DNA of 64,000 bases from Thermodesulfobacteriota bacterium (GCA_965216785.1 OZ244197.1:1952001-2016000); one strand, 5' to 3'. Numbered from the stretch's first letter, positions 38,214 to 58,965 are shown. Numbers and translations: made by a program. Notes: a model not told the origin generated them from the sequence alone.

Positions 38214-39068
38214 TTACCAGTGCTTTCCGTAAAGCTTCTCGGCGTTATTCCAGAAGATGTCGTCTTTTAGCTGCTCTGAAATGTCTGCGCCTTCTATCTT
38301 CCAGTACTCTGACGCAAAGTCGCTCCATGGGATATCAGAGCCGAAAAGGAACCTGTCGCCCCCGATGCCTCTTTCCTCAATTTCCTTAAGAAGCCAAGTT
38401 GACCCGAAACCCACAGCCCAAGAGGAATCCGTGTAGACCTTGTAGCCCTCTTCAACCAGATCGAAGAACCTTGGGACAAATTTTATGTGGCCGCTCACGC
38501 CGCCGCCCATGTGCACGACATGGATTTTAACCCTTTTGCCATACTCTTTTATGAGCCCGAGTGCGTTATCTATGTCCGAGCCTCCACCGGGGCTGGTGTG
38601 AATGTGGAGCGGCATATCGTTTTCTTCCGCTGCGCCCAGGATCATTTCCCATAGCGCTTTAGAGTCTTCGTCCCACTCCGCAGGGTTAAACGTTCCGCCG
38701 AGAAGGCAGGTGGTCTTAAGACCTACGAGTCCCTGCTCGCCGATCAGACTCAGTGCCTCTTCAGTGCGCTCCTTATCTTTTGGAAGCGCTGAGACCCATA
38801 TTAATCCCATCAGACGGTCAGTCGACTGTACGCTTTCTCCGACAAGGGGATTTAAAGTAAAGGGCTGGGCCGAATCCGGGTAACCGTAATTGGCCATTAT
38901 GAGCGCTCTGTCCACGCCGTGCCCGTCCATACCCTTTAGATATTCGTCCGCGGTGTCATAGTCTGTTGTAGGCTTGACCGCTTCGGGGAGCCCGTAGTAC
39001 GCAAACCCCGGAACAGGACCTATGTGACTGTGGTTATCAAATACCTTCTTTCTATTATTCATACCCAT
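38214..39068 (-). CDS. amidohydrolase family (Amidohydro_2-like) metal-dependent hydrolase
   Basis: FDNHSHIG, LHIHTSPG, VVHMGGG, FGSDIPW; AGGAGG RBS. Confidence 0.88.
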   Translation of the reverse strand: MGMNNRKKVFDNHSHIGPVPGFAYYGLPEAVKPTTDYDTADEYLKGMDGHGVDRALIMANYGYPDSAQPFTLNPLVGESVQSTDRLMGLIWVSALPKDKERTEEALSLIGEQGLVGLKTTCLLGGTFNPAEWDEDSKALWEMILGAAEENDMPLHIHTSPGGGSDIDNALGLIKEYGKRVKIHVVHMGGGVSGHIKFVPRFFDLVEEGYKVYTDSSWAVGFGSTWLLKEIEERGIGGDRFLFGSDIPWSDFASEYWKIEGADISEQLKDDIFWNNAEKLYGKHW

Positions 39069-39094
39069 ATGACTGCCTCCTATATGTATTTTTT

Positions 39095-39469
39095 TTAGTG
39101 AGTCTCCATTTTTTCCCCAACGCGCGCGCGCATGGACTTTTCTATCGATGTTGAAGATTCTCCCTTCTCTAAGCGTCCGGCAACTTCTTTAAAATCGTCT
39201 CCGTACCCTTTCTTTGTCTGACTCTCGGCTTTATTCATAGTGTCAGCGAGCGTTTTTGTATCTTCTTTCTGTAATTTTTGTTTTCGGGATTCTAATGCTG
39301 CAGGTGAAGGTTTCTCTTTGGCAACGGCGACGCTTGAGATGATGCGCTCCAGTCTCTTGCCGCCGCACTCGGGACAAAGCGGCTTTTCTTCACTTGCTTC
39401 TGTGAAACTTAGGAAAAACACCTCTACATCTTGGTTACAGTCTAAACAGTTGTATTCATAGATAGGCAT
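39095..39469 (-). CDS. FmdB family zinc-ribbon protein
   Basis: MPIYEYNCLDC...CPECGG..LERIIS. Confidence 0.9.
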   Translation of the reverse strand: MPIYEYNCLDCNQDVEVFFLSFTEASEEKPLCPECGGKRLERIISSVAVAKEKPSPAALESRKQKLQKEDTKTLADTMNKAESQTKKGYGDDFKEVAGRLEKGESSTSIEKSMRARVGEKMETH

Positions 39470-39474
39470 TTAGT

Positions 39475-39606
39475 TTTCCTAAAGTTGATATTTCATATAT
39501 TGTAGGAAATATTGCGTTGGTAGTCAACCACTAATTTTAGTAGTTTGAAATAATATTTTGGAGCGGACAAAAAACTCTTGACTTGATTTCCTAAAGTTGA
39601 TAAAGT
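39475..39606. promoter_or_regulatory. divergent promoters with a duplicated 16-bp putative operator
   Basis: TTTCCTAAAGTTGATA at 39475-39490 and 39587-39602; minus-strand TTGACT-17-TACAAT (39527-39499); plus-strand TTGACT-17-TAAAGT (39578-39606). Confidence 0.7.
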
Positions 39607-39640
39607 GTCAAGTATAGTAAACGCGTTTAGTGAAGGTCAG

Positions 39641-40102
39641 TTGGAAAAAATTATTTTTAAGATAGCCGAAAACGAAGAAGAACTAGAGGGTTGTTTTAGG
39701 ATTCGACGTGAAGTATTTGTTGATGAGCAAAAAGTATTCGACGAGACGGATGTAGATGTGTATGACACAGATCCGTTTCATAAAGCGGTACACATTATTG
39801 CACTTAAGGAGTCGGACGGCACGATGGTAGGTGCAGTCAGGTGTTATAGAAAAGAAGGTGATACATGGTTTGGTGGGCGCTTGAGCGCGGCGCGCGGTTA
39901 CCGTAACGGCAGGGTAGGGGCAGGGCTTGTGAGATTCGCCGTAAAAACCATGAAATCGGGTGACTGTAAGAATTTTTACGCATACGTGCAGCCTCAGAAC
40001 GTAAGATTTTTTCAAAGGTTGGGCTGGGAACCTGTAGGAGAGCCTGAGACATACCAAGGACTCCCTCATCAGTTAATGAAAGCTGATTTAGATTCAGAAT
40101 AA
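39641..40102 (+). CDS. MSMEG_0567/Sll0786 family GNAT N-acetyltransferase
   Basis: IRREVFVDEQ, VGAVRCY, WFGGRL, LVRFAV, AYVQPQNVRFFQRLGW, HQLMKADL; TTG start chosen downstream of the promoter. Confidence 0.88.
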   Translation: MEKIIFKIAENEEELEGCFRIRREVFVDEQKVFDETDVDVYDTDPFHKAVHIIALKESDGTMVGAVRCYRKEGDTWFGGRLSAARGYRNGRVGAGLVRFAVKTMKSGDCKNFYAYVQPQNVRFFQRLGWEPVGEPETYQGLPHQLMKADLDSE

Positions 40103-40118
40103 ACGATTAAGGGTCGAA

Positions 40119-41087
40119 ATGCAGGATTTAATCAGGAACCTCAAATCATCGGATACGCTAGCTCAAAAAGAGACCATACAAAATATTTGGGAGTATTTCC
40201 CGAAGTTCTCAGAAATATCCGGCGAAAAAGTGCATCTCGGAGACGACGCGGCAGCCATTAAGTCAGGAGATGAGTACTTACTGCTTGCCGGAGAGGGCGT
40301 ATACCCGCCGCTCCTTAAATCAAACCCTTATTTAGCCGGACGAACATCCGTGCTAACCAACGTTAATGATATTTACGCGATGGGCGGAAGACCTGTGGCT
40401 ATTGTGGATGTGCTTATGTCACAGGATGTACAAACTACAGGCGAAGTATTGAGAGGTATTAGAGATAATGCCGAGCGCTACGACGTGCCGGTGGTAGGGG
40501 GTCATATATCTCAGGAAACGCCTGCAACTTCTCTCGCTGTCTTTATCTTGGGCAGAGCAAAGAAACTCATTTCGAGCTTTAACGCCCGGAGCGGAGACGA
40601 CCTGGTCTTTATTACAAACTCAAAAGGAAAGTTTGTCTCCGGGTTTAATTTCTGGGACTCCTCGAGCATGCTCAAAGGCTCTGAGGTAAGGGGCGACCTG
40701 GAGCTATTGGCCGAGACCGCGGAACAAGAGCTGGCAGATGCGGGAAAAGACGTGAGTATGGCGGGCTTGATCGGCTCTGTGCTAATGCTCCTTGAAAGCT
40801 CCTCTGTAGGCGCGGAGATAAATATCGACTCTATCCCACGTCCTTTTGAAGTACCGCTTGCGGAGTGGATGCTTGCGTTTCCGAGCTTCGGTTTCATATT
40901 GTCCGTAGATCCTAAGAATACTCCCCGGGTGAGAGAGAAATTCACCACTTCCGGGCTTAGCTGTGAGAGTATAGGCAGGGTGATAGAGGAAAAGAGCGTT
41001 TATTTCGTTGACGACAAGGGTCAAAGAGAGCTATTTTGGGATTTTCATGAAAGCGCGTTAATAGGTACAGGGGAAACAATTTCGTAA
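40119..41087 (+). CDS. Sll0787 family AIR synthase-related protein (PurM/SelD/ThiL/HypE fold)
   Basis: GDDAAAI, NVNDIYAMGGRPVAIVD, VPVVGGH, AGKDVSMAGLIG, WMLAFPSFGF. Confidence 0.88.
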   Translation: MQDLIRNLKSSDTLAQKETIQNIWEYFPKFSEISGEKVHLGDDAAAIKSGDEYLLLAGEGVYPPLLKSNPYLAGRTSVLTNVNDIYAMGGRPVAIVDVLMSQDVQTTGEVLRGIRDNAERYDVPVVGGHISQETPATSLAVFILGRAKKLISSFNARSGDDLVFITNSKGKFVSGFNFWDSSSMLKGSEVRGDLELLAETAEQELADAGKDVSMAGLIGSVLMLLESSSVGAEINIDSIPRPFEVPLAEWMLAFPSFGFILSVDPKNTPRVREKFTTSGLSCESIGRVIEEKSVYFVDDKGQRELFWDFHESALIGTGETIS

Positions 41088-41097
41088 CAGGTGGAAG

Positions 41098-41685
41098 ATG
41101 GATATAGAAAGAAATCAAATAGATCATATTGTTTCAAAGCTCGGGGAGAAGATTAAGGTTCTCCGAACGGAAAAAAATATGTCGCTGAAAGACCTCTCGG
41201 AAAGATCGGGAATTTCCGCGGCCGCAATACATAAGATAGAAGCGAACGGCATCATCCCGACAATCACGACGATGATGAAGATCGCGGACTCGCTCGGGAA
41301 AAACGTGAGTCATTTTATAGAGGAAGACCGTAAGGATAAAGACGTAGTGTTCGTTCCGGCAAAAAAACGCGAGCCGATTCTTACGTTTAAAAAAGGGCTC
41401 GATTTAAAGGGTATTTCGGCAAAGCAGTATGGGGATTTTATTATGACTGCCGCCTACGCGACAGTAGCTGTAGGAGCGACGAGCGGCAGGAGCCCAATGA
41501 AGCACCAAGGTGAGGAGCTTGTTTATTGCCTTCAGGGAAAGATCGAATTCAAGATCAAAAATGAAACCTATGTCTTGGGTCCCGGGGACAGTCTCAATTT
41601 CAGGACGCACCACGACCATAAATGGAAGAATGTAGGTAATAAAGAGGCAAAACTAATATGGGTGCTGGCTGTTCCGCCGACATAA
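41098..41685 (+). CDS. XRE-family HTH transcriptional regulator with cupin domain
   Basis: LRTEKNMSLKDLSERSGIS..IE..PTI; HQGEE..Y.LQG, LGPGDS, HKWKN. Confidence 0.92.
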   Translation: MDIERNQIDHIVSKLGEKIKVLRTEKNMSLKDLSERSGISAAAIHKIEANGIIPTITTMMKIADSLGKNVSHFIEEDRKDKDVVFVPAKKREPILTFKKGLDLKGISAKQYGDFIMTAAYATVAVGATSGRSPMKHQGEELVYCLQGKIEFKIKNETYVLGPGDSLNFRTHHDHKWKNVGNKEAKLIWVLAVPPT

Positions 41686-41721
41686 GATAGAGCGGGGCGG
41701 CGCAGCGATACGGAATCTATT

Positions 41722-42993
41722 ATGAATGAAAAATATATTGCCGAGCTTATTAACGACGCCAATAAAGAAGCGGTCACGCGGATACTTTCCTCAGAACCCG
41801 TACTTACGGACGTTGCCCCAGCGCTAGACGCGGTGCCGGGGATGACCCCGACGACAGTGCTCCACGCCGGGCCTCCGATTACCTGGAGGAGGATGTGCGA
41901 CCCCATGAAAAGGGCCGTACGCGGAGCGCTGATTTTTGAGGGCCTCGCCAAGGACGACAAAGGGGCCGAAAAGCTTCTAAAGGACGGAAAGATAACTTTG
42001 GCGCCGGGGCACCATTACGATGCCGTAGGCCCTATGACCGGAATAATATCCGCCTCGATGCCCGTTGTAGTCACAAAGGACCATACTCACGGAAAGACAG
42101 TTTGCTCCACTTTTAACGAAGGCGGCGGCAGGGTGATGTGGTTTGGCTCTGTCTCTCCCGAGACAATAGAGAGGCTTAAGTTTATCCGCGACGTTTTCGG
42201 CCCTACAATGAAAAAGATTTTGAAGAAAACGGGCGGGATACCCGTGTGGAGCATACTAGCGCAGGGGATACAGATGGGAGACGAGTGCCATAACCGCCAC
42301 GCCTCAAGCACGAACATACTCGTGAAAACCATAGTAGAGCCCCTGTTTTCACTTAGCATCCCGAAAAAGCAGGCGTTTCAGGTATACAGGTTTATCGCGG
42401 GAAACAGCCACTTTTTCCTTAACTTTTCAATGACTGCGTGCAAGCTGGCGATGGACGCGGCAAGAGACATAGAGAATTCAACTATAGTGACGGCAATGTC
42501 GCGTAACGGCACGGATTTCGGGATCAGGGTAAGCGGCCTGGGAGACAAATGGTTTACAGCGCCTGCGCCCTACCTCCTTGACGCGCTCTATAACCCGGGC
42601 TACGGACCGAGTGACGGCGCTCCGGACATAGGGGACAGCTCGATCATAGAAACCATGGGCCTCGGCGGGTTCGCCATAGCCGCAGCACCCTCAATGGCCT
42701 CATTCGCCGGGGGCGGTTATCAGGAATCAGTGGAGATTACAAAGAGAATGGGCCAGATAACGACGGTTAAAAATACAAAGTTCGGGATCCCCTCGCTTGA
42801 TTTTGAGGGTACGCCGCTTGGGATTGACATAAGAAAGGTAGTGGAGACTGAGATCCTACCGAGCATAAACAGCGCGGTCGTGCACAAGAGCTCGGGGGCC
42901 GGGCAGATTGGGGCTGGAATAGTGCACGCCCCTTATGAGTGCTTCACGAAAGCGGTGTTGGAGTTTGGCAAGCAATATAAGCTTGCGGCATAG
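41722..42993 (+). CDS. DUF1116 protein (YlbE/YahG, oxamate carbamoyltransferase AllG-like subunit)
   Basis: LHAGPP, AVGPMTG..SASM, QMGDECHNR, MSRNGTDFGIRVSG, DIGDSSI.ET.GLGG, GQIGAG. Confidence 0.9.
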   Translation: MNEKYIAELINDANKEAVTRILSSEPVLTDVAPALDAVPGMTPTTVLHAGPPITWRRMCDPMKRAVRGALIFEGLAKDDKGAEKLLKDGKITLAPGHHYDAVGPMTGIISASMPVVVTKDHTHGKTVCSTFNEGGGRVMWFGSVSPETIERLKFIRDVFGPTMKKILKKTGGIPVWSILAQGIQMGDECHNRHASSTNILVKTIVEPLFSLSIPKKQAFQVYRFIAGNSHFFLNFSMTACKLAMDAARDIENSTIVTAMSRNGTDFGIRVSGLGDKWFTAPAPYLLDALYNPGYGPSDGAPDIGDSSIIETMGLGGFAIAAAPSMASFAGGGYQESVEITKRMGQITTVKNTKFGIPSLDFEGTPLGIDIRKVVETEILPSINSAVVHKSSGAGQIGAGIVHAPYECFTKAVLEFGKQYKLAA

Positions 42994-43053
42994 ATTAAAA
43001 GACGAAAAGACACTGGAATAATAAGTTTGTTACGGAAGAATTGAGACGAAAAA

Positions 43054-44601
43054 ATGGCAACAATAAGCACAATAAAGAAAAATCACTATCAGGACTCGAT
43101 GAAGCTGATGCAGATCAGCCAGAAGCTGCGCGCGCTGGAAGGCATTAAGGACGCGGCTGCTATTATGGCCACGGAAGCAAACCTCGCAATGCTTAAAGAG
43201 GCCGGATTGATAAAAGAGATTCCCGCCGCGGCAAGCGCAAACGATCTGATCGTAGCTGTAGAAGCCGTATCCGCTGATAAAGGCAACGAGGCGATAGAGA
43301 GCCTTGATTCCCTACTCCTCCCGGCTGATCTTACGGCTGCTTCCGAGGTCTCTTATAAAAGTATTGAGACCGCGGCACAAGCACTGCCGGGGGCGAATAT
43401 CGCAGTAGTTTCAGTGCCCGGAGAGTACGCGAAGATAGAAGTCGCAAAGGCGATTGAAAAGGGAATGCATACGTTTTTATTCAGTGACAATATATCGATA
43501 GACGAAGAAATCGAGCTTAAGGAAAGAGCCCGGGATAAGGGGCTATTGGTCATGGGTCCCGGGTGCGGGACGGCCATAATAAACGGCATAGGGCTTGGGT
43601 TTGCGAATGTGCTCAACAAAGGGACTATCGGCGTTATCGCAGCCGCGGGAACAGGGATGCAGGAGGTCACCAGCCTTATAGACAACCTTGGCTCGGGCAT
43701 AACGCACGCAATCGGCGTAGGTGGCAGGGATTTATCAGAAGACGTGGGCGGCATTACCACGCTCCAGGCGATAGGGATGCTCCATAATGATAGCGATACA
43801 CAAGTACTCCTTTTAGTTTCTAAGCCTCCTTCTGACAGTGTTGCCGCAAAGGTGCTCGAGGCTGTGAGGGAAACCGGTAAACCCGCCGTAATATGTTTTT
43901 TGGGCTCTGATCTCACAAGCGATGACAGGGATATCTATTTTGCTCCCACTTTGGACGAGGCCGCCGAGCGCGCCGTGCAGTTAAGCAGAAAAAGCAAAAG
44001 TAAACCTAAAATTAATTCAGCCAAGAACTGGAAAAAACTCCTGCGGGAATCTATTAAATCCCTGAGTCCGGGACAAAAATACCTGAGGGGACTTTATTCC
44101 GGAGGAACGCTCTGCTATGAAGCGCAGCAGGTGCTCGGCCCTATTGTCGGAAACATATACTCAAACGCCCCGCTCAATAAGGATTTTAAGCTAAAGGACT
44201 CGAACAAAAGCGAGCGCAACTCATGCATTGATCTTGGGGAAGAGGAGTTTACCGTAGGGCGGCCCCACCCGATGATCGACGCGACACTTAGAGGCGAGAG
44301 GCTTTTGAGTGAGGCGTCAAAAGCGAATGTGGGCGTAATACTTTTTGACATAGTTTTGGGACACGTGGCAAGCCCCGATCCGGCGGGCGATCTCTTGCCC
44401 GCGATCGTAGAGGCCAAAAAACGCGCGAAAAAGAAGGGACGGAACCTGGTATTCATATCCCACGTGTGCGGAACGGAGAACGACCCGCAGGTTTTAGAGG
44501 AGCAGGAGGAAAAACTGAGGAGCGAGGGTGTTCTGGTTTTTCCGACAAATGCGCTTGCGTCAAAGGCTTCGGGGCTTATTACTAGCAGAGGTGAAGTATA
44601 A
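43054..44601 (+). CDS. fdrA: acyl-CoA synthetase-like FdrA/YahF protein (AllF-like)
   Basis: YQDSMKLM, SVPGEYA, FSDN, VMGPGCGT, GTGMQE, GGRDLS, SKPP, GLYSGGTLCYEA, FTVGRPHPMID, GTENDPQ. Confidence 0.9.
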   Translation: MATISTIKKNHYQDSMKLMQISQKLRALEGIKDAAAIMATEANLAMLKEAGLIKEIPAAASANDLIVAVEAVSADKGNEAIESLDSLLLPADLTAASEVSYKSIETAAQALPGANIAVVSVPGEYAKIEVAKAIEKGMHTFLFSDNISIDEEIELKERARDKGLLVMGPGCGTAIINGIGLGFANVLNKGTIGVIAAAGTGMQEVTSLIDNLGSGITHAIGVGGRDLSEDVGGITTLQAIGMLHNDSDTQVLLLVSKPPSDSVAAKVLEAVRETGKPAVICFLGSDLTSDDRDIYFAPTLDEAAERAVQLSRKSKSKPKINSAKNWKKLLRESIKSLSPGQKYLRGLYSGGTLCYEAQQVLGPIVGNIYSNAPLNKDFKLKDSNKSERNSCIDLGEEEFTVGRPHPMIDATLRGERLLSEASKANVGVILFDIVLGHVASPDPAGDLLPAIVEAKKRAKKKGRNLVFISHVCGTENDPQVLEEQEEKLRSEGVLVFPTNALASKASGLITSRGEV

Positions 44602-44602
44602 A

Positions 44603-45559
44603 ATGGCTGATAAACTAAAATCCGCAGTAGTGGCATTCGGCGGGAACGCTCTTATGGGTGAGGATGGAAACAGCACCTACAAAGAGCAGATGATTAAGAC
44701 AGACATAATGTGCAATAAGCTCCTTACACTCTTTAACATGGGATACAGGATACTTATTACGCACGGGAACGGCCCGCAGGTAGGAAACTTCCTTATGCAG
44801 CAAGAGTGTCTGGCGGAGAACGTGCCCCCGATGCCCCTTGACGCGTGTAACGCGATGACCCAGGGGCAAATCGGCTACATGATCGAGCAGAGACTTCGAA
44901 ATACTTTTACTGAGAACAATATTCATAAACCCATAATCGTATTCATCACGCAGGTAGTCGTCGCTGAAAATGACCCTGCGTTTAATAAACCCACAAAGTT
45001 TATAGGGCCTTTCTTTAATAAAGAGCAGAGCGATAAGCTGAGCAGAGACGAGGGATGGCTGATGAGAGAAGACTCCGGCAGGGGTTTCAGGCGTATAGTG
45101 GCCTCTCCGAAACCCATAGATATTATTGAGAAAGAAGAGATAGCAGACATGTCGGAAAGGGATTTTGTCGTCATCGCGTGCGGCGGGGGAGGGATCCCGG
45201 TGCTAAGGGATGAGAAAAATCTGCTCAGAGGCGTACCCGCAGTTATAGATAAAGACTTTGCTGCGGAGAGGATAGGGAGCTATATCGGCGCGGAGCTTTT
45301 ACTGTTAATCACACCGGTGGATCGGGTGGCAATTAATTTCGGTAAACCCGAGCAAGAGTTTATTTCAGAGATGACGCTCCAGGAGGCACAGCAGTATTTG
45401 AAGGAGGGGCATTTCCCGCCGGGCAGCATGGGACCTAAGATGCAGGCCGCGATTGAGTTTTTGCAGGCGGGAGGGAAGAAAGCAATTATCACATCGCTTG
45501 ATTGTATAGAATCGGCGATTAAAGGAGAGGGCGGAACTCAAATAATAAATAGTCACTAA
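44603..45559 (+). CDS. arcC: carbamate kinase
   Basis: VAFGGNAL, THGNGPQVG, PTKFIG, EDSGRGFRRIVASP, GGGGIPV, VIDKD, GSMGPK; start moved to MADK. Confidence 0.94.
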   Translation: MADKLKSAVVAFGGNALMGEDGNSTYKEQMIKTDIMCNKLLTLFNMGYRILITHGNGPQVGNFLMQQECLAENVPPMPLDACNAMTQGQIGYMIEQRLRNTFTENNIHKPIIVFITQVVVAENDPAFNKPTKFIGPFFNKEQSDKLSRDEGWLMREDSGRGFRRIVASPKPIDIIEKEEIADMSERDFVVIACGGGGIPVLRDEKNLLRGVPAVIDKDFAAERIGSYIGAELLLLITPVDRVAINFGKPEQEFISEMTLQEAQQYLKEGHFPPGSMGPKMQAAIEFLQAGGKKAIITSLDCIESAIKGEGGTQIINSH

Positions 45560-45746: not shown

Positions 45747-46238
45747 ATGGCAGTAGACAGAGTAAAGGCCGATAGGCCCGAAAATGGTAAAGCTTTAGTG
45801 AATTACGAGGAGAAACTTTTCCCGGATCATCAGGCGAATGAGGGCGAAAAAGCTCTATTCCTCGTCCACTCGGTCCCTTATGAAGGATCGGTGGCAGGTA
45901 TCAACATGCTTACGGCTATCAGAACCAAGAGGAAAGGCTATGATACCAAGGTGCTTTTCTACGGTCCTGCATCTGCCATACCTGCGTACAGGGGATGGCC
46001 TAACGTAGGAGACGACGGTTACGGCGCGGGCATTCAGCTTTACCCTAACCTCGTTAACAGAATGCTGGAGGAAGGTATTACGGTTTACGCATGCCGTTTT
46101 TCAGCTGCGGCGCTTCTGGGTATGAATGAGTCTAACTTCATCGAGGGCGTAATACCGATTCATCCTACGGATATTCTGGATATAGTGATTGAGCATCACA
46201 GGGCTGGAGCCATGATGTTTAATACATGGACGATGTAA
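45747..46238 (+). CDS. MSMEG_0572/Sll0783 family nitrogen starvation response protein (DsrE-like)
   Basis: LVNYEEKLFPD..A.EGEKAL, HSVPYEGSV, TAIR..RKG, VYACRF, PIHPTDILD, NTWT; AGGAGG RBS. Confidence 0.9.
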   Translation: MAVDRVKADRPENGKALVNYEEKLFPDHQANEGEKALFLVHSVPYEGSVAGINMLTAIRTKRKGYDTKVLFYGPASAIPAYRGWPNVGDDGYGAGIQLYPNLVNRMLEEGITVYACRFSAAALLGMNESNFIEGVIPIHPTDILDIVIEHHRAGAMMFNTWTM

Positions 46239-48927: not shown

Positions 48928-49176
48928 ATGGCATTTGGACACTGGCTTAGAAAAAACGCGGAAAAACACCTTCAGGAAGCGGCTGCTGACGACTTGATAT
49001 CCCGCTACCCGGAAGCCTGTGAGAAGCCCTACAGGGAAAAGGGTTTGGACCACTTTTTCTGGCGGAGTATATTCGTGCCGGTGTATCTTGCGATACCTTG
49101 GAGTATTCGCAAAAAAATTATTTTAGCCACGTCTTACCCCGGAGGTAAGCGGCCTCATTGGAAGAAATATGATTGA
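48928..49176 (+). CDS. small hypothetical protein
   Basis: AGGAGA RBS; in operon; FFWRSIFVPVY. Confidence 0.7.
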   Translation: MAFGHWLRKNAEKHLQEAAADDLISRYPEACEKPYREKGLDHFFWRSIFVPVYLAIPWSIRKKIILATSYPGGKRPHWKKYD

Positions 49177-49245: not shown

Positions 49246-50250
49246 ATGAATACCCAACCAAAAATAAAACCCATCGATTTCAGGGCTCTGACAATAGGGA
49301 ATAAGGTCCTAAACATAATAGAGGATTCGGGGAATACTCTTTACGTACAGGGGGTTTTCGATCACGCGTTTTATCTGCGTGCCCGCTCGGGCGGTCTTGT
49401 TAAGATAGTTCGGGACAAAGATTTTTTGAGCCCCGCTTCCATACTTGTGAGCGGGGATAAAGAAATGGGCTTCGGCTCATCAGGGATAAGCGCGGAAACT
49501 GAATTTGTATACGAGGACGGCTCTCTAATTAGCCCTGACGGCGCCTATACTATTGAGCTTGAAAACGCCGGGGTATTCACATCTCCCGAGGTTCCCGCCC
49601 CGGAGCACCTGTCGAGCCTAGAGGAGATTAACCTTAATCTGAGGGTGCTTAAGGACACTATATATACAGCCCCATCGAGGGAGGGGCTCGTGCCGCTACT
49701 TGAAAAAGTGGAGAAGCTCGGGCCATTGGAGGTGTATACGAAGGAGCAAAAACCCTCTATGTCCGAGAAGGCAAGACCCTTTATAGACGGGCTGATGTGG
49801 GGTGTGTTCGGAGGAGATGTTCTTTCGATCAAAGATAGCGCCAGTGAATTGTTGGGACTGGGACCGGGGCTTACGCCTTCCTGTGACGACTTTCTTGCGG
49901 GGCTTTTGCTCAGCATAAATACCGCGGGGGCTTCTATATTTAAGAGCGAGCCTGAAACAATTGGGTTCTTCGCAAAAGTTTCAGAGCTGATATCGACGCT
50001 TGCGAAAGAGAAAACCACTGTTTACAGCCAAAGCTTATTAAATGAAGCGGCTTTGGGGGAAGGCCCCCAGAACGCGCTTGATTTAATAATCTCTTTAGTA
50101 ACAAAGGGCTCTGAGGGGATAACGGAGCCCGCGAAAAAGTTAATCTCTGTGGGAGAGACCTCCGGGGCCGATATAGCTATTGGCATTTATTACGGCGTCA
50201 GGTTTTTGACTTCGAGAATAGAGATGAAGGAGCTGCTCGAATTTGAATAA
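49246..50250 (+). CDS. DUF2877 protein (YlbF/YahE, AllH-like)
   Basis: LLGLGPGLTPSCDDFLAG, KTTVYS, VGETSGAD. Confidence 0.88.
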   Translation: MNTQPKIKPIDFRALTIGNKVLNIIEDSGNTLYVQGVFDHAFYLRARSGGLVKIVRDKDFLSPASILVSGDKEMGFGSSGISAETEFVYEDGSLISPDGAYTIELENAGVFTSPEVPAPEHLSSLEEINLNLRVLKDTIYTAPSREGLVPLLEKVEKLGPLEVYTKEQKPSMSEKARPFIDGLMWGVFGGDVLSIKDSASELLGLGPGLTPSCDDFLAGLLLSINTAGASIFKSEPETIGFFAKVSELISTLAKEKTTVYSQSLLNEAALGEGPQNALDLIISLVTKGSEGITEPAKKLISVGETSGADIAIGIYYGVRFLTSRIEMKELLEFE

Positions 50251-51436
50251 GATTGCGCTACTGACATATTCGACGAAGCCCAGGGGCGGAGTTGCCCATA
50301 CGCTCTCCCTTGCCGAGAGCCTGCAGAAGCTCGGGCGGGAAGTACACGTTTACGCGCTCGCCACGGGAAAGGATTTTTTCCGCCTGGTGAACGTGCCTTA
50401 CACCCTAATCCCGTGCCCGGATGTAGATTACAGCAGCATGGACGAGAAGGTGAAGAGCTACATAGATATCTACACGCGGTTCCTTGGTGAAGCCGCGGAC
50501 GAATATGAGCTTTTTCACGCCGAGGACTGTATATCGGCGAACGCTCTCTTTCATTTGCGTGAAAAGGGACTCATAGAACACTATGTTAGAACAGTGCACC
50601 ATATAGACGATTTTACCTCTGAGCCGCTGATAGATTGTCAGCTAAAAAGCATAGTGGAGCCTGATTATGTGGTGTCGGTAAGCAAGCTCTGGGAAAGGGA
50701 GCTAAGGGAGAAATATTCCATCGAGTCAGTGGTCATTAATAACGGAGTTTCCGTAGGGAATTTCACGCGATTGGATACCGCTTCTATCAAAGCGGCTAAA
50801 AAGAGCTTTAATGTAGAGGAGGCAAAGGTAATCCTTAGTATCGGGGGGATCGAGCCGCGCAAAAATACTTTAACGATTCTAAAAGCATTTCAGGCATCGA
50901 AATCAGAGCTTGAGAAAGCGGGCGAAAAGTTGGTATGGCTGATAGGAGGGGGAGAGACGCTCTTTGATTACAGGGATTACAGAGAACAGTTTTTCTCACA
51001 AGTAAATGAGCTTGGCTTAGAGCTTGGAAAAGACATCATTGTCCTCGGAAGCGTACCCGAGGAAAAGATGCGAGACCTCTACAGTTCGGCTGACGTTTTC
51101 GTTTTCCCATCCATTAAAGAAGGCTGGGGGCTCGTAGTGCTGGAGGCTATGGCTTCGGGGGTTCCGGTCATCGCCTCGAATATCGAGCCAATGACGGAGT
51201 ATCTGAAAGACGGGGAAAACGCTGCGCTCATATCTCCCATGGACTCAGGGTCACTCGCTCTTGGAATTACCAGCATAATTGGAAACGAAAAACTTAGATT
51301 AAAACTCATAGAAAACGGGGCTAAAACCGCGGCTATGTATAGCTGGGAATCAGCGGCGCGAAAGCACGCGGTGTTTTACGACGAGATATTAAAAAGCGGG
51401 AGTAGAGCGGAGAAGAGAGCGGTGGGACATGATTGA
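50243..51436 (+). CDS. MSMEG_0565 family glycosyltransferase (GT4)
   Basis: LLTYSTKPRGGVAH, HAEDCISANAL, RTVHHIDDF, GGIEPRKN, EGWGLVVLEAMASG. Confidence 0.92.
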   Translation: MNKIALLTYSTKPRGGVAHTLSLAESLQKLGREVHVYALATGKDFFRLVNVPYTLIPCPDVDYSSMDEKVKSYIDIYTRFLGEAADEYELFHAEDCISANALFHLREKGLIEHYVRTVHHIDDFTSEPLIDCQLKSIVEPDYVVSVSKLWERELREKYSIESVVINNGVSVGNFTRLDTASIKAAKKSFNVEEAKVILSIGGIEPRKNTLTILKAFQASKSELEKAGEKLVWLIGGGETLFDYRDYREQFFSQVNELGLELGKDIIVLGSVPEEKMRDLYSSADVFVFPSIKEGWGLVVLEAMASGVPVIASNIEPMTEYLKDGENAALISPMDSGSLALGITSIIGNEKLRLKLIENGAKTAAMYSWESAARKHAVFYDEILKSGSRAEKRAVGHD

Positions 51437-51818
51437 GGCAAAAGCTGTATGGAAAAAGAACTATCAGGTGAGGGTCGAGGCAAGACAGTTCACGGTGGAT
51501 ACGGACGAGCCGCCCGAGTACCGGGGCGAGGATACCGGGATGATGCCGACCGAGATGTTTATCGCATCGCTCGCGTCTTGTTTCTGCATGTCTCTTGTGT
51601 TTGTGGCTAAAAAAAACAGGATCGTCCTAAAAGATATGCAGGTTGAGGTAGGAGCGGAGGCGGACACTCAGAATTTTAGGTACTCAAAATTGATTGTAAA
51701 AGTTAGCAGCACTCTGCCGGATGATCAGGTGGAGGGTTTGATCGGGCAGGCCAAGAAATACTGTTATGTAAGCAATACGATCTCTGAGACTTGCCCCATT
51801 GAGTATGAGATCGCATGA
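51429..51818 (+). CDS. OsmC family protein
   Basis: DEPPEYRGEDTG..P.E, SLASC, KYCYVSNT. Confidence 0.88.
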   Translation: MIEAKAVWKKNYQVRVEARQFTVDTDEPPEYRGEDTGMMPTEMFIASLASCFCMSLVFVAKKNRIVLKDMQVEVGAEADTQNFRYSKLIVKVSSTLPDDQVEGLIGQAKKYCYVSNTISETCPIEYEIA

Positions 51819-51846
51819 ATATCCTAGGACTTAAAGGGAGAGAATT

Positions 51847-52302
51847 GTGGCGCTAAGATACACGATAAAAGATAACTACTTTCAGGACGCGCTGAGGCTG
51901 ATGCGCATTTCAAAAAGCTTCAGAGATAAAGAGGGCGTGAAAAAGGCCGTAACCGTAATGGCTACCGACAAGGCGAAGTTCGCGCTCAAGGACGCGGGGC
52001 TGATTAATGATGAGATAAGTAAAGCAAAAGGGAGCGACCTGGTGCTGGCGGTCGAGGCTGATAACGAGCAGATCGCTTGTCAGGTGTTAAAAGAGATGGA
52101 ACAGACCGTGTCTGCCGGGGAGTCCGTCGGCGCGGGCGGGGGAGAAGACGTCCTGAATCAGGAGCTTCGGGTGATTAACGTCGGGCTCGATATATTCAAG
52201 GACGCGCTGGCAAGTCAGGGAGTAAAAACAGTGCAGGTGGATTGGGAAGTCCCAGCTAAGGGCGATGAGAAGATAATAGGCATACTCAAAAAAATGTACT
52301 GA
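51847..52302 (+). CDS. small FdrA-domain protein (FdrA N-terminal domain fused to the FdrA-C/YahG-N motif)
   Basis: YFQDALRLM..VMAT..LKDAGL..DLVLAV parallels the N-terminus of 43054; VINVGL..F...L..QGV..VQVDWEVPAKG. Confidence 0.78.
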   Translation: MALRYTIKDNYFQDALRLMRISKSFRDKEGVKKAVTVMATDKAKFALKDAGLINDEISKAKGSDLVLAVEADNEQIACQVLKEMEQTVSAGESVGAGGGEDVLNQELRVINVGLDIFKDALASQGVKTVQVDWEVPAKGDEKIIGILKKMY

Positions 52303-52335
52303 GGATTATTATGAGATTAAGCGAGGGGATTTAGA

Positions 52336-52902
52336 GTGAGCATACGAAACCCACAAGAATTAAAAGAAGTTTTATCAGACCCCGCGAGGCTTGCCAGGGC
52401 GTTCTCGAGACATACGTATGGAATGAATGCCTGGGTGGATTTGTTCACCGAGAAGCTAAAGAGCGTTACTGATTCGGACATAAGAAGGGTAATGGAGCAA
52501 GTGGTTGCCGATAACAAAAAGCACTCACAGCTATTCTCGACCCGTGCAAGAGAGCTTGGAGAGACTCCCGAAACATATAAACCCCCTGAGATAGGGCAGA
52601 GGATATACGACATACTGGAGACTTATGACAGCGTGTTTGACGATTTCGCCTATGCCTGGGGATCGTTGATACACTTCTCATCTCTGCTCAGCTTATATCA
52701 CAGTGTCGCGGACCCGGAGAGTAAAGCGGTAATAGAGCAGGTAGAGGACGACGTCATAAGACACCTTAGTTATCTGGAGGATTACTTCTCGGCAAACGCC
52801 GACACGCCTGAGAAAAAAGAGCGCGCCCGGGAAATAGTGGAAGTTGCCGATAACATTTACGCAGATAGAGAAGAAGAGGAGATAAAATGGTATGCCTCGT
52901 AG
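52336..52902 (+). CDS. ferritin-like four-helix protein
   Basis: ADNKKH..LF..RARELGE.P and DPESKAVIEQVEDDVIRH; repeated helix pair. Confidence 0.6.
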   Translation: MSIRNPQELKEVLSDPARLARAFSRHTYGMNAWVDLFTEKLKSVTDSDIRRVMEQVVADNKKHSQLFSTRARELGETPETYKPPEIGQRIYDILETYDSVFDDFAYAWGSLIHFSSLLSLYHSVADPESKAVIEQVEDDVIRHLSYLEDYFSANADTPEKKERAREIVEVADNIYADREEEEIKWYAS

Positions 52903-53740
52903 GGATATCCCCGGCTTTGAGGAGCTGCGGAAGTCTATATCCGCATACAACCCGAGATACTATTATTTTAAGCTTGTATCACTATTTTTAAGGACAGTCG
53001 GCAGCATGTCGGAAGGAATTAGGCTAGGGTTCGAGCACGGTTTTGATTCAGGAACTATTATGAATTACATATATGAAAACACCCCTAAGGGAAGGGGATT
53101 TATCGGGAAGAAAATAGACGAATCGTTTCTTGATCAGACTACCTGCAAGGCGTTTAGGTCTATAAGGGAAATACAGCGGGGAATGATAACTGAATTCCTT
53201 GAGGGACGAGAGGGGAAAAAGACATTTATAGCGGATCTCGCCTCGGGTAAAGCGGATTATCTGTACGATGTGCTGGCTGAAAAAGATTATGACATACAGG
53301 TGCTTTTGCGGGATATAAATGAGAAGACGCTCGAAGAGAGCAGAGCGATTGCCGAGCGGCTCGGGATAGGGGATAAAATTACCTATGAGCTTGGGGACGC
53401 GCTAAACACGGAGAGCCTAGCCACCATAAGCCCGGCGCCCGACCTTGTAGTCGAGGTCGGCCTTTACGGCATCATTCACGACGACGAGCTTATAAAAAAA
53501 CATTTTCACGATTTAATAAACATACTGCGCCCAGGGGCGCTTTTATTTAACGTTCAGACCTATAACGAGCAGATTGAGCTTATAGCCAGAGCGCTCGTGA
53601 ACCAGGACGGCGGACCCTGCGTGTGGCACCTGCGCCCTGTCGAAGAGGTGATAGGCTGGGCCGAAGAAGCGGGTTTTAAGGAGCCCGAAATAACTATGGA
53701 CCCCTACGGTATCTACGCAGTGGTAATGATGAGAAGCTAA
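52892..53740 (+). CDS. class I SAM methyltransferase resembling the YnbC C-terminal domain (Methyltransf_20)
   Basis: SEGIRLGFEHGFDSG..MNYIYEN.P.G, ADLASG, GDAL, GLY. Confidence 0.8.
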   Translation: MPRRDIPGFEELRKSISAYNPRYYYFKLVSLFLRTVGSMSEGIRLGFEHGFDSGTIMNYIYENTPKGRGFIGKKIDESFLDQTTCKAFRSIREIQRGMITEFLEGREGKKTFIADLASGKADYLYDVLAEKDYDIQVLLRDINEKTLEESRAIAERLGIGDKITYELGDALNTESLATISPAPDLVVEVGLYGIIHDDELIKKHFHDLINILRPGALLFNVQTYNEQIELIARALVNQDGGPCVWHLRPVEEVIGWAEEAGFKEPEITMDPYGIYAVVMMRS

Positions 53741-55128
53741 TGAAAAAAGAAAGATTCGTACTTGGATGGCAGGGCGGCGTAAAAGGCCCCGATAATATAT
53801 GCAAGGTGCTCTCGGACAGAGTGCGCACGGTCATGGAGAGCCCGCACGGGATGTGGAACTACATGACGTACCGTGACGCGATAAACATCCTCGGGCTTGA
53901 TCCATTGAATATTTATAAAGAGGGGAGGATTGACCTGGACCCCAAAGAGTGGGCGGACTTTGGCTGGATGACCTGCTACGCGGGCCCTCCTGAGAGGGCG
54001 GTCGAAGCCATGCGGAGAAGCACTAACGATGAGAACGTGAATCCCTACTCCCCTGATCTAATAAACCCCTTGAGGGACGCCTGCGCCGAGCTCAAATTCG
54101 GACGTAAAAGAGGAAGCGGTTTTGAAGTCATAGGGGCCGAGGGCAGCCAGGCCGGGATATCCTATACGCTCCAGACAGTGCTTAACCCGGGTGAAGAGGT
54201 GATTATTACAGACCCCGGGTATTTCCATTTCGAGTCTTCCATACTTATGGCCGGGGGAAGGGTCGTAAGGGTGCCGCTCGATCAAGAGTACGGCTTCAGG
54301 CTCGACCCCGACAAGCTGGAGAAATATATAACTTCCAAGACAAAGGTAATAATTGTTTGCGACCCGCTTAACCCGTTCGGCACCGTACAGACTAAGGAAG
54401 AGCTTCTTAGAATTATCGAGATGGCGGCTGAAAAAGACATAATTGTCATAAACGACATTACGCACGACACTCAGAGAGTGGACCCCGAATCCCGCCATTT
54501 TCCGATGAGCGCCCTGCACGGCGAGACGAATACCGATAACGTTGTCGCAACGTTCAGTCTATCGCACGGTTACGGCATGGCAGGCGTGAGAATCGGTTTT
54601 CTGGGTGGGCACCCGGAATTAATTAGGGCATGTCTTATCGCGAAAACTTCCCTTACGAGGCTGAACACAAACCTGATCGCTCAGTACGGCGCTCTGGCCG
54701 CGCTCGAGGACACGGAGTATGTAGAAAAATCACAGGACATAATTCGGCGTAACTACTCGCTTATAAAAGAAATTGTGAATGAGAACGAGGGTATTCAGAT
54801 CCCGGTCGAGCCTAAATACGGCTTCTCGATGATAATTGACGTCTCGGGGGCCGGAGTGTCGGCGCAGGAGCTGACAGTAGCGCTATTTAAATACAATATC
54901 GCCGTCTACCCGGGGGACGGGCTCGGTAGCGTGGGGGCGACAAAGTTCATCCGCCTCAATATTTCAAGGCCAGACCTGTGGGCGTTTGATCACATGAGGG
55001 AGAATCTTCCCAGGGCAATATCCGACGCGAAGAGCGGCGTATATAGAGAAGGCGTACTTAATTTCTTCTCTCAAAGAGACACGAAGCGCGCGCGGATGAT
55101 AGTGGAGGAGATAAAGGGAATATCATGA
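53740..55128 (+). CDS. class I/II aminotransferase-fold PLP enzyme with His at the Schiff-base Lys position
   Basis: DPGY, DPLNPFG, NDITH, FSLSHGYGMAGVRIG, FIRLN. Confidence 0.85.
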   Translation: MKKERFVLGWQGGVKGPDNICKVLSDRVRTVMESPHGMWNYMTYRDAINILGLDPLNIYKEGRIDLDPKEWADFGWMTCYAGPPERAVEAMRRSTNDENVNPYSPDLINPLRDACAELKFGRKRGSGFEVIGAEGSQAGISYTLQTVLNPGEEVIITDPGYFHFESSILMAGGRVVRVPLDQEYGFRLDPDKLEKYITSKTKVIIVCDPLNPFGTVQTKEELLRIIEMAAEKDIIVINDITHDTQRVDPESRHFPMSALHGETNTDNVVATFSLSHGYGMAGVRIGFLGGHPELIRACLIAKTSLTRLNTNLIAQYGALAALEDTEYVEKSQDIIRRNYSLIKEIVNENEGIQIPVEPKYGFSMIIDVSGAGVSAQELTVALFKYNIAVYPGDGLGSVGATKFIRLNISRPDLWAFDHMRENLPRAISDAKSGVYREGVLNFFSQRDTKRARMIVEEIKGIS

Positions 55129-56069
55129 AAGTCTCAGAGGATTTATTGGAGCTGGTAGGAAATACTCCGCTTGTCGGGCTCGGCAAGCTCGGAGCGGAAT
55201 TAAGCGGCGATCTATACGCCAAGCTCGAATACACGAACCCTACGGGGAGCGTGAAGGACAGGGTATCCCGCTACATAATTGACGACGCCGAGCAAAAGGG
55301 GCTGCTTGAGCCCGGGGGCACGATTGTTGAGGCTACCTCTGGAAATATGGGCGTCGCGTTCGCACTGATCGGAGCCATACGCGGCTACAAATGCATATTT
55401 ACACTGCCCGAGTCCATCACGAAAGAGAAGATTCAAGCCCTTAAGCTTTATGGCGCCCAGGTGGTGCTTACGCCCAAGGGGCTCCCGCCCTCGGACGAGA
55501 GGAGCTGCTATAAAGTCGCCCATAAGATAGCGCGTGAGAAGGGGGCGTTCTACGTAAACCAGTACTTTAACCCTCTTAACCCACAAGCGCACTATGAATC
55601 TACCGGCCCTGAAATATGGAGCGATACGGACGGCGAGGTGGATACGGTAATATGCGGCATCGGCACAGGCGGGACGATTAGCGGGGTCGGGAAGTACTTG
55701 AAAGAAAAAAGAGCGGATATAAAAATCGTCGGGATTGAGCCCGTGGGCTCGGTTTTCAGTAATTACCTTAAAGATGGGGTTTTGGCAGAGGCCTCTGATT
55801 TTGACATAGAGGGTATTGGAAAGAATTTTATCCCGGGGGCGCTTTCATTCGATAACATAGATGAAGTAATACAGGTCGAGGAGGATGAGGCTCTAGGTTC
55901 TGTAGAAGCGCTTTTGAAAAACGAGGGTATCCTGGCAGGACCATCAAGCGGGGCCGCTCTTGCCGGGGCGCTGAAATACACGAAAAACCTTAACAGGAAA
56001 GAGAAAATTGTCATCATTTTCCCGGACACGGGACTCAAGTATCTGTCCAAATACACAGGGCTCGGTTAA
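55125..56069 (+). CDS. cysteine synthase/cystathionine beta-synthase family PLP enzyme
   Basis: VGNTPLV, NPTGSVKDR, EATSGN, NQY.NP.N, GIGTGGT, IEGIG, GPSSGA. Confidence 0.9.
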   Translation: MKVSEDLLELVGNTPLVGLGKLGAELSGDLYAKLEYTNPTGSVKDRVSRYIIDDAEQKGLLEPGGTIVEATSGNMGVAFALIGAIRGYKCIFTLPESITKEKIQALKLYGAQVVLTPKGLPPSDERSCYKVAHKIAREKGAFYVNQYFNPLNPQAHYESTGPEIWSDTDGEVDTVICGIGTGGTISGVGKYLKEKRADIKIVGIEPVGSVFSNYLKDGVLAEASDFDIEGIGKNFIPGALSFDNIDEVIQVEEDEALGSVEALLKNEGILAGPSSGAALAGALKYTKNLNRKEKIVIIFPDTGLKYLSKYTGLG

Positions 56070-56101
56070 AGATTGTATAATCTATATACTCCGGCAGTCC
56101 T

Positions 56102-57319
56102 ATGAATAGAATCACTTCTGAAACCGCAAACGAACTAACGTTAAAATACGGCTCCCCGCTATTTGTTTTCTCAGCCGAAGCCATAAAGAACAATCTGGCT
56201 ATCTTCAGAGACGAGTTCGTAAAACGATACGATAACACAGCGCTCGCCTACTCTTACAAGGTCAATTATCTGCGCGGGGTACTGGATGTAATCCACAAGG
56301 AAGGCGCCTGGGCCGAAGTTGCTTCGGGTTTTGAATACGGTTTAGCTGGGGATGGCGGTGTACCCGGCGAGAAGATCGTATTTAACGGACCTCTCAAGAA
56401 GGATGACGAGCTTCGCCGCGCTATAGAGGACAGGGCATATATAAACGTAGACCATTTCGATGAGCTCCGCGCGCTAGAGCGGATTGCGGCGGAGCTGCAA
56501 AGACCTGTTGACATAGGCATAAGGATTAATACCGACGTCGGGATCGAGCAGCTCCCCGACCGCTTTGGCTTTAACCTTGAATCCGGTGAGGCAGAGCGGG
56601 CAGTGCGCGTATGTGCTGAGAATAAATTTCTGAATATTACAGGTCTTCACATTCACCTTACGAGCTACATCCTAGAATCGCGGAGTGAAGAAGACATACC
56701 GGCGAGGGGAATTAAGCTCATATGGCCCAAAGGGCCGGAGGCGTACTTGAACGCTTCGAAAAAGACAGTGAACTTTGCCAGGACGCTGAGAGAAGAGTAC
56801 GGGGTGGAGATAAAATATCTGGATATGGGGGGCGGGTTCCCGACAGTGGATTCCCTGGGCCCTTATGCGGAGGCTGTCACATCCCCTATACGCGATGAGT
56901 TTGGAGATGCCGAACCCCCACTATTGATACTTGAACCGGGAAGGGCAATCGTGAGCAGCGCCGCCCAATTGATTGCGACTGTAGTTGCGACAAAAGAGCT
57001 TCCGGGAGGGCACAGCGCTGTAGTCACGGACGCGGGTATTAACATTCTTCCCACTTCACTGTTTAAATATCAGGATATAGAGTGCATGACTGAACCCAAA
57101 GGCGAGCTTAGAGAAACTATCGTCTACGGTCCGCTGTGTCTTCAGAATGATATTATCGCTAGGGTAAAACTGCCGGAGCTTAGGGCGGGGGATAAGCTCC
57201 TGGTGAAAAACGTAGGGTCTTACAATATCCCTCAGTCAAGCTCGTTTATATTCGAGCAGCCTGCGGTGATCGTGAAAGAGGGTGGTGCGATGAAAATAAT
57301 CCGTGAACGGGGTGTGTGA
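56102..57319 (+). CDS. diaminopimelate/ornithine decarboxylase family (fold III PLP) protein
   Basis: YSYKVN, EVASGFE, FNGPLK, DMGGGF, EPGR, GPLC, GSY; the divergent DRFG and HIHLTSY motifs argue against housekeeping LysA. Confidence 0.85.
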   Translation: MNRITSETANELTLKYGSPLFVFSAEAIKNNLAIFRDEFVKRYDNTALAYSYKVNYLRGVLDVIHKEGAWAEVASGFEYGLAGDGGVPGEKIVFNGPLKKDDELRRAIEDRAYINVDHFDELRALERIAAELQRPVDIGIRINTDVGIEQLPDRFGFNLESGEAERAVRVCAENKFLNITGLHIHLTSYILESRSEEDIPARGIKLIWPKGPEAYLNASKKTVNFARTLREEYGVEIKYLDMGGGFPTVDSLGPYAEAVTSPIRDEFGDAEPPLLILEPGRAIVSSAAQLIATVVATKELPGGHSAVVTDAGINILPTSLFKYQDIECMTEPKGELRETIVYGPLCLQNDIIARVKLPELRAGDKLLVKNVGSYNIPQSSSFIFEQPAVIVKEGGAMKIIRERGV

Positions 57320-58961: not shown

Positions 58962-58965
58962 CTTT

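Follow-up and report, generated by a model that had tools for sequence, protein, structure and literature searches.

The stretch analysed here (the window) comprises 64,000 nucleotides from a Thermodesulfobacteriota bacterium (GCA_965216785.1 OZ244197.1:1952001-2016000). Positions 38214-57319 hold a gene cluster that is a sister of the Nit1C cluster and falls outside the seven-gene definition given in the cited parts of PMC1199592 and PMC11049912. It carries the Nit1C core without a nitrilase and, interleaved with that core, a carbamoyl module of AllF, AllG, AllH and carbamate kinase. From the sequence we propose, at somewhat less than an even chance, that this sister cluster would release a carbamoyl unit by phosphorolysis rather than hydrolysis, probably from a small-thiol carrier.

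The Nit1C core without its nitrilase

An earlier note, made from the sequence alone, had recognised five Nit1C/gpr core families in the window. All five (TIGR04045, TIGR04049, TIGR04044, TIGR04043 and TIGR04047) scored above their curated cut-offs (Table 1; paired scores here and below are bit score/curated family cut-off). The absence of nitrilase, MSMEG_0569 and MSMEG_0570 also stood: none was seen in the cluster or, as Nit1C type, genome-wide. A Pfam scan of the cluster proteins found no C-N hydrolase. In the host genome, one contig of 3.1 Mb that is 92% complete, MSMEG_0570 (NitG, TIGR04042) had no match and MSMEG_0569 (NitH, TIGR04046) matched only as a 33-residue fragment, while a Synechococcus control was positive for both. 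Seven C-N hydrolases are encoded elsewhere in the genome. The three nitrilase-like ones among them scored 215-219 against the TIGR04048 cut-off of 502.6, less than half of what a Nit1C-type nitrilase requires. These three are branch-1-like nitrilases (G000:C1 649111-650247, 666018-667028 and 868188-869144) and lie more than 1 Mb from the cluster.

The host resembles Dadabacteria; the nearest relatives of its radical S-adenosylmethionine (SAM) protein, 93-94% identical, are in Candidatus Dadabacteria records. A cognate nitrilase elsewhere, which the earlier note had named as something that would refute its proposal if co-regulated, was found neither in this genome nor, above cut-off, in any of 120 genomes of the class (0/120). 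Other nitrilases occur in 90 of these 120 genomes, with or without the cluster.

As described in the cited sources, the known Nit1C/gpr clusters (Podar 2005, PMC1199592; Pseudomonas nitBCDEFGH; Synechocystis sll0783-0787; M. smegmatis MSMEG_0565-0572, PMC6039565) share with the window the DsrE-family protein NitB, NitD, NitE, NitF and the GT4 glycosyltransferase, all above cut-offs. Unlike them, the window cluster has no nitrilase or amidase, no MSMEG_0569 and no MSMEG_0570. It adds AllFGH, carbamate kinase, an amidohydrolase, a coenzyme A disulfide reductase (CoADR)-like flavoprotein, an 82-aa protein, OsmC, an XRE-cupin regulator with its own operator-like sites and a tail of pyridoxal phosphate (PLP) enzymes. 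At one related AllFGH-type locus (L020), a GAF-sigma54 activator is 52% identical to the activator of a canonical locus.

The interleaving of DUF1116 (AllG), FdrA (AllF), DUF2877 (AllH) and carbamate kinase with the core was borne out as well, FdrA and the kinase by scores above cut-off and AllG and AllH by Pfam. AllF matches 3dmy at E 1e-88 and succinyl-CoA synthetase alpha at E 6e-14; a phospho-histidine in AllF was considered and dropped, as the synthetase alignment spans only residues 101-284. A small 151-aa protein matches AllF N-termini over residues 4-89 and AllG N-termini over residues 103-151, and would thus combine an FdrA N-terminal domain with a segment that other phyla have fused to AllG.

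E. coli AllFGH is described as a reversible transcarbamylase that forms carbamoyl phosphate, and all four families of that oxamate system, AllFGH and AllK, are common to the window cluster (PMC11326118). The cluster differs from it in having no upstream allantoin pathway, in scattering the genes through the Nit1C core and in its extra mini-subunit. Genome-wide, AllD had no match, no cyanase was found, and the best allantoinase model match was 249.9/357.85, under cut-off. The cited part of PMC12625717 places allFGHK only in ureide contexts. At one locus, of bacterium HR37 (L024:12778-13839), a second, divergent carbamate-kinase-like gene is inserted in the cluster.

Two exchanges of modules around the core

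The earlier note had suggested checking whether the FdrA module and the nitrilase exclude each other beside the core. Among 115 loci with at least two core genes after merging of overlapping fetches, the two never occurred together: 87 had AllF/G/H only, 5 had C-N hydrolase/MSMEG_0569 only, none had both and 23 had neither, a tally that is a pattern and not a statistic. The 23 are mostly short contigs or minimal sets of radical SAM, GNAT and AIR-synthase-like protein (AIRS). A C-N hydrolase match in G633 was set aside, as it lies 12 kb away from a cluster that the contig end truncates. The CoADR-like flavoprotein, the 82-aa protein (conserved in three phyla) and OsmC travel with the AllFGH type. 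The amidohydrolase is not strictly linked to AllFGH, as G751 pairs it with two C-N hydrolases and MSMEG_0569. We also considered this enzyme as an exclusive substitute for the nitrilase and rejected the idea, since at L170 it accompanies two C-N hydrolases and MSMEG_0569; that locus, which has no AllFG, fits an amidohydrolase acting upstream of either exit.

A comparable exchange is on record. Two ways of breaking down N-carbamoylputrescine are established, hydrolysis by an amidase and phosphorolysis by a transcarbamylase with carbamate kinase, so that the agmatine deiminase route, as described in PMC10839685, shares the logic of a C-N hydrolase exchanged for transcarbamylase and kinase. The analogy is functional only: the transcarbamylase fold differs. 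In the C-N hydrolases of actinobacterial canonical clusters, the N-carbamoylputrescine amidase model ranks first or second, far under cut-off. Because the exchange around the Nit1C core mirrors the known one, we infer a shared intermediate, and by this analogy it is rather probable that both cluster types act on one carbamoyl or cyano compound. A quick tree of the radical SAM protein puts the C-N clusters within the AllFGH types, with weak support (Shimodaira-Hasegawa-like approximate likelihood ratio, SH-aLRT, 89-94); a careful tree of the DsrE protein sets the actinobacterial C-N clusters apart on a long branch and does not place L040.

A second exchange separates the 87 AllFGH loci. Nineteen carry at least one coenzyme M (CoM) biosynthesis gene, 24 carry homologues of the cluster's aminotransferase-fold protein with histidine at the PLP lysine position (His-aminotransferase) or of its decarboxylase, and none carries both. 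This exclusivity suggests a small thiol or sulfonate carrier. All five xcb genes are present in L028, L035, L173, L174, L177/178, L179 and L188; the order in related clusters is that of Nocardioides JS614 pNOCA01. DUF7714, which is XcbA, scored 326.6 and 450.5/150 at related loci and occupies a matching position on plasmids of Xanthobacter and Nocardioides. For its neighbours the other four were the top matches, just under to well under cut-off (XcbD 597/600, XcbC 439/575, XcbE 260/450, ComA (XcbB) 234/280). Compared to the bacterial CoM pathway xcbA-E as described in PMC9457059, these genes are built into 19/87 loci, and the window has in their place the tail of His-aminotransferase, cystathionine-beta-synthase (CBS)-like enzyme and decarboxylase. 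The cited part of PMC11507031 places CoM only in epoxide metabolism.

In the actinobacterial genomes G555, G756 and G811 and on a metagenome contig (L141), the His-aminotransferase gene lies next to carbamate kinase; in the three genomes a gene for an SsuD-like (alkanesulfonate-monooxygenase-like) protein adjoins the decarboxylase gene. Minimal radical SAM-GNAT-AIRS loci of Desulfomonile-like genomes sit downstream of an SsuA-family importer. Around the core, then, three distinct modules related to sulfonates turn up repeatedly, and the sulfur involvement proposed in the earlier note is strengthened by the CoM genes, the SsuD-like monooxygenase and the SsuA-type importer.

The Desulfomonile-like loci (L027, L029, L031-L033) have the radical SAM and GNAT proteins fused, and L041 and L042 hold radical SAM and AIRS in Thermoplasmata; the AIRS of all these loci score closest to methanogenesis marker 2. 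In Methanosarcina acetivorans, run as a control, DUF7714 (XcbA family) was above cut-off and TIGR04044 weak, a possible link to archaeal CoM synthesis.

The merger of core and carbamoyl module is not confined to this genome. It recurs in the Dadabacteria-type class and, rearranged, in Actinomycetota and Dormibacterota, contrary to the restriction to one genome that the earlier note had named as fatal to its idea. The gene order of the window is found in 23 of 48 genome loci, as far as contigs extend. L020 is one rearranged locus among the 48, and 8/48 loci, from Actinomycetota/Dormibacterota, have the amidohydrolase and core genes in other orders, 7/8 with AllF. In loci of the family f2 type the amidohydrolase sits within the operon.

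Of the 120 class genomes, 51 have TIGR04044 and 53 have AllG; 50 have both, 1 and 3 have a single marker and 66 have neither, a co-occurrence of 50 in the 54 with either. About four in ten sampled genomes of the class carry the cluster, genomes of 1.5-1.9 Mb included. Among 396 evenly sampled genomes of Actinomycetota (the phylum of G121), 16 have TIGR04044, two being seed genomes; AllG is present in 13 of these 16, within about 7 kb in 10. Of 301 genomes from the phylum of G120, G120 was the only positive one, and the system is accordingly patchy there. No match to the amidohydrolase was found on plasmids.

Several related loci have features of their own. In L013 several cluster genes are in pieces, through sequencing errors or decay. 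L097, L099-L102, L112 and L116 form a further subtype with a BTAD-AAA-TPR regulator of about 1180 aa upstream. In clusters outside Dadabacteria, a protein of about 225 aa and of no known family (L035:8347-9021 and homologues) is encoded 5' of the amidohydrolase; the host genome lacks a homologue of it.

Candidate chemistry and its alternatives

In the proposed route, AllFGH would act on a carbamoyl intermediate (R-X-CO-NH2) and form carbamoyl phosphate, from which carbamate kinase would yield ATP, CO2 and NH3. It is nearly an even chance that X stands for the sulfur of a small thiol serving as carrier: CoM at loci with xcb genes and, in Dadabacteria, a CoM-like thiol produced by the PLP tail. 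A fuller version, which we regard as doubtful, has the DsrE, OsmC and CoADR-like proteins cycling thiol and disulfide. They would drive the oxidation of a cyanide-level carbon onto the thiol to give R-S-CN, the electrons would pass to NAD(P)+, and the amidohydrolase would hydrate R-S-CN to R-S-CO-NH2. Radical SAM, AIRS, GNAT and GT4 would build or modify the carrier, a proposal that we rank lowest. The oxidation-on-thiol version fits three findings as the sources report them: the lowered NADPH/NADP ratio of gpr and sll0783 mutants (PMC6039565, PMC3901256), the need for nitB and nitC in growth on cyanide (PMC5939895), and cyanide itself being a poor substrate of the Nit1C nitrilase (PMC7815647).

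The amidohydrolase retains its full metal site (H13, H15, K118, H155, H157, H186 and D245 invariant in 27/27); its family is compact (75 representatives at E<=1e-30 in a profile search) and its predicted TIM barrel is best matched by an uncharacterised protein (Z 21.2, root-mean-square deviation (rmsd) 3.0, 243 aligned). C119 of the DsrE-family MSMEG_0572 protein (numbered from GTG 45738) is kept in 127/128 aligned matches. The redox C47 of the flavoprotein is invariant in 14/14, with an altered glycine-rich NAD(P)H-binding motif, and the ferritin-like protein has D59/H63, H113 and D139/H143 invariant in 15/15. In the radical SAM protein, C118/C127/C130 and C343/C346/C349 are invariant in 28/28. 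Its model (pLDDT 92) is nearest to lipoyl synthases by VIA (Z 19.2-19.7; top match rmsd 3.0, 237 aligned) and it scores 60/270 against the LipS2 model. As Foldseek puts HydE nearest instead, insertion of sulfur from an auxiliary Fe-S cluster is a lead only.

In the PLP tail, the aminotransferase has His276 at the PLP lysine position of 1dju/1gd9, and histidine stands there in 120/120 of the best 120 of 728 homologues; the Schiff-base lysine of class I PLP aminotransferases is thus missing. The CysK-like protein scored 331.5/600 against NF053679, under the cut-off for the cysteate synthase CapA, and its best structural-database match is PDB 9k2p. The role of the Dadabacteria tail (CBS-like enzyme, decarboxylase, His-aminotransferase, methyltransferase and ferritin-like protein) is assigned from position only.

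A number of observations weigh against the thiol-carried, phosphorolytic route. Carbamate kinase and AllFGH are both reversible, and gene content leaves the direction unfixed. E. coli AllFGH was active without added thiol in the assays described in PMC11326118. Forty-four of the 87 AllFGH loci carry neither the CoM nor the PLP-tail module within the stretch fetched. xcbA was found in 0/120 class genomes, and xcbA and ComA are absent from the host genome; CoM itself as the carrier in this genome is unsupported. G555, G756 and G811 have no xcbA at any locus, yet have ComA elsewhere in each. The tail is variable, the methyltransferase and His-aminotransferase being missing in L003/L004 and the CysK-like gene in L052/L058, and in some family-f2 genomes it is separated from the cluster. 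No characterised structure is a close match to the amidohydrolase. For the radical SAM protein the VIA Z scores of MqnE (18.2), biotin synthase (18.1) and HydE (17.9) leave lipoyl synthase a lead of only 1-2, and Foldseek puts HydE first. Finally, the 115-locus sample was seeded from the window and includes many close relatives and no more than 5 canonical loci, which makes its counts non-independent.

The same enzymes could also run in the biosynthetic direction, which we think rather unlikely. The kinase would then make carbamoyl phosphate, AllFGH would carbamoylate a thiol or amine, and AIRS, radical SAM, GNAT, GT4 and the methyltransferase would build a cofactor or metabolite, either by a HypF/HypE-like conversion of thiocarbamate to thiocyanate or by PurL-like formation of an amidine or thioamide; in canonical clusters the C-N hydrolases would supply nitrogen. 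The core enzymes are indeed of biosynthetic types, AllFGH was assayed in the carbamoylating direction (as described in PMC11326118), and a possible biosynthetic role of Nit1C is suggested in the cited part of PMC7815647. The AIRS profile is nearest PurL, as this direction would have it, and ThiL. The HypE analogy drawn in the earlier note turned out to be weak: HypE ranks under PurL, ThiL and SelD (57.4 vs 85.7 bits), the match to the HypE model TIGR02124 is 19.7/251.6, and AIRS has no terminal cysteine. HypE requires that cysteine. Moreover, canonical clusters hold the same AIRS without any source of carbamoyl phosphate, and according to PMC5939895 Nit1C mutants fail on cyanide and nitriles as nitrogen source, which is a catabolic phenotype.

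It could be speculated that the cluster makes and recycles an antioxidant thiol like mycothiol or bacillithiol, using GT4, a deacylase, an ATP-dependent ligase, an acetyltransferase, a disulfide reductase and a peroxiredoxin, while AllFGH and the kinase clear a carbamoyl by-product. GT4 matches BshA/MshA weakly and MSMEG_0569 matches YpdA weakly, all far under cut-off; OsmC and the CoADR-like protein are in the cluster, and gpr confers peroxide resistance according to PMC6039565. The same source reports that peroxide did not induce gpr, and the exchange of AllFGH and kinase for C-N hydrolases and the cyanide phenotype would be left unexplained. We consider this very unlikely. That an ordinary oxalurate/ureide module is merely co-located with a remnant of Nit1C lacking the nitrilase, each scavenging nitrogen separately, seems most improbable of all. 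allFGHK is described in ureide contexts without Nit1C (PMC12625717, in the part cited), and 39 of 52 AllG-positive actinobacterial genomes have no TIGR04044 (four of the 52 are flagged unpublished, and no other claim rests on those four). However, the genes are interleaved in at least 5 different orders across phyla, 50/54 class genomes with either marker carry both, the cluster has one promoter/operator-like region, and the genome has no AllD, no cyanase and no allantoinase above cut-off.

Returning to the phosphorolytic route, a still broader proposal, to which we give a low probability, is that Nit1C and its sister form one undescribed thiol-carried one-carbon pathway. A cyanide-level carbon would be oxidised onto CoM or a CoM-like thiol, pass there from thiocyanate to thiocarbamate, and leave by hydrolysis (nitrilase type) or by ATP-yielding phosphorolysis (the type seen here). 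The Dadabacteria carrier would come from a PLP route with a lysine-less aminotransferase-fold enzyme.

Gene layout, possible local control and significance

All 21 packed genes counted in the earlier note are present where it placed them (Table 1). They are arranged not as a single run but as two divergent units, with 2 open reading frames on the - strand and 19 on the + strand. Intergenic gaps across the cluster range from -11 to 187 nt. The genes are single-copy in the genome, distant paralogues aside. The guanine-plus-cytosine (GC) content is close to that of the backbone, and the cluster is therefore not a recent island.

Table 1. Genes and operator-like sites of the cluster in window coordinates.
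Feature	Position	Strand	Evidence or remark
Amidohydro_2 metal hydrolase, conserved cluster member across phyla	38214..39068	-	PF04909
FmdB-family zinc-ribbon protein	39095..39469	-	TIGR02605 50.6/31.3
Operator-like site 1, 35-bp imperfect palindrome	39475..39509		Weight-matrix score 38.7; overlaps predicted - strand promoter
Operator-like site 2, 35-bp imperfect palindrome	39587..39621		Weight-matrix score 43.8; overlaps predicted + strand promoter 39578-39606
MSMEG_0567/Sll0786 GNAT (NitE)	39641..40102	+	TIGR04045 137.8/68.45; start inferred, longest reading frame from 39605
sll0787 AIR-synthase-like ATP-dependent protein (NitF)	40119..41087	+	TIGR04049 352.8/321.3
XRE-cupin (PuuR-like) regulator	41098..41685	+	HTH_3 and Cupin_2
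AllG/YlbE (DUF1116)	41722..42993	+	PF06545, 272.8 bits
AllF/FdrA	43054..44601	+	NF004760 484.8/433
Carbamate kinase	44603..45559	+	TIGR00746 379/358.25
MSMEG_0572/Sll0783 DsrE-family protein (NitB)	45747..46238	+	TIGR04044 174.5/109.85
MSMEG_0568 radical SAM (NitD) with second three-Cys motif	46353..47489	+	TIGR04043 329.2/303.7
CoA-disulfide-reductase/NADH-oxidase-like flavoprotein	47518..48861	+	TIGR03385 288.7, under cut-off 578.8
82-aa protein, no known family, directly 3' of flavoprotein	48928..49176	+	No Pfam/NCBIfam match
AllH/YlbF (DUF2877)	49246..50250	+	PF11392, 74.3 bits
MSMEG_0565 GT4 glycosyltransferase	50243..51436	+	TIGR04047 407.5/259.85
OsmC/Ohr-like thiol protein	51429..51818	+	PF02566
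Putative small AllFG accessory subunit (151 aa)	51847..52302	+	NF004760 partial match
Ferritin-like four-helix protein, atypical Glu-poor metal site	52336..52902	+	Atlas matches to ferritin-like clusters, 0.90-0.94
SAM methyltransferase (Methyltransf_20)	52892..53740	+	PF12147
Class I aminotransferase-fold protein, His276 replacing PLP Schiff-base Lys	53740..55128	+	Alignment to 1dju/1gd9
Cystathionine-beta-synthase/cysteate-synthase-like PLP enzyme	55125..56069	+	TIGR01137 349.8, NF053679 331.5, both under cut-off
Fold-III PLP decarboxylase (LysA/FslC-like)	56102..57319	+	Distinct from the genome's other lysA-like gene

In the 171 nt between the divergent units a 35-bp imperfect palindrome occurs twice; each copy overlaps a predicted promoter, and both are conserved in nine aligned relatives. 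A weight matrix built from 17 sites found no further site in the 3.1 Mb genome, the next best scoring 11.7 vs 43.8 and 38.7; column-permuted matrices reach 9-21. Across 152 loci, sites above 14 occurred in 53, of which 8 are training loci and some are family-f2 loci outside training, and in none of the actinobacterial loci. The confinement of the palindrome to the divergent promoter suggests local control. As judged from sequence, a repressor specific to this locus, probably encoded by the operon's XRE-cupin gene, is suggested, hence substrate-responsive control, and the XRE-cupin protein is the likely binder of the palindromes. Scans for sigma-70 promoters and terminators gave counts near those of shuffles (27 vs 20.4 and 29 vs 21.1), and only the conservation-supported pair of promoters was used. 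The GNAT-AIRS-XRE-AllG-AllF-kinase genes lie downstream of one predicted promoter and are spaced 1-60 nt apart, an arrangement that speaks against the Nit1C and carbamoyl modules being expressed independently.

The GNAT gene probably starts at TTG 39641, preferred to GTG 39605 because the latter falls inside operator-like site 2. MSMEG_0572 probably starts at ATG 45747 rather than GTG 45738. A gene for an OprB-family porin (57337-58704, - strand) converges on the cluster end; it is not counted as a member because no fetched locus has a homologue. Beyond it lie tRNA-Lys and tRNA-Leu (58885-59050), followed at 59019-64000 by a truncated tyrosine-recombinase fragment, an excisionase-like gene and a 672-aa primase-like reading frame. 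This tRNA-adjacent region, of 32-37% GC, is probably an integrated element.

The combination appears to be undescribed, as the earlier note had supposed: we found none in the full-text literature searched, a scope that leaves subscription journals and supplements outside. Known since 2005, Nit1C is required, in different hosts, for growth on cyanide, NADPH balance and peroxide resistance. Two natural module exchanges around one core constrain its chemistry, pointing to a carbamoyl intermediate and a sulfur carrier, and offer direct assays. If the broader thiol-carried pathway is real, the use of CoM would extend beyond methane, alkane and epoxide metabolism. Given its frequency in the class, the cluster may represent a genuine route to nitrogen and energy that has gone unannotated in these uncultured bacteria.

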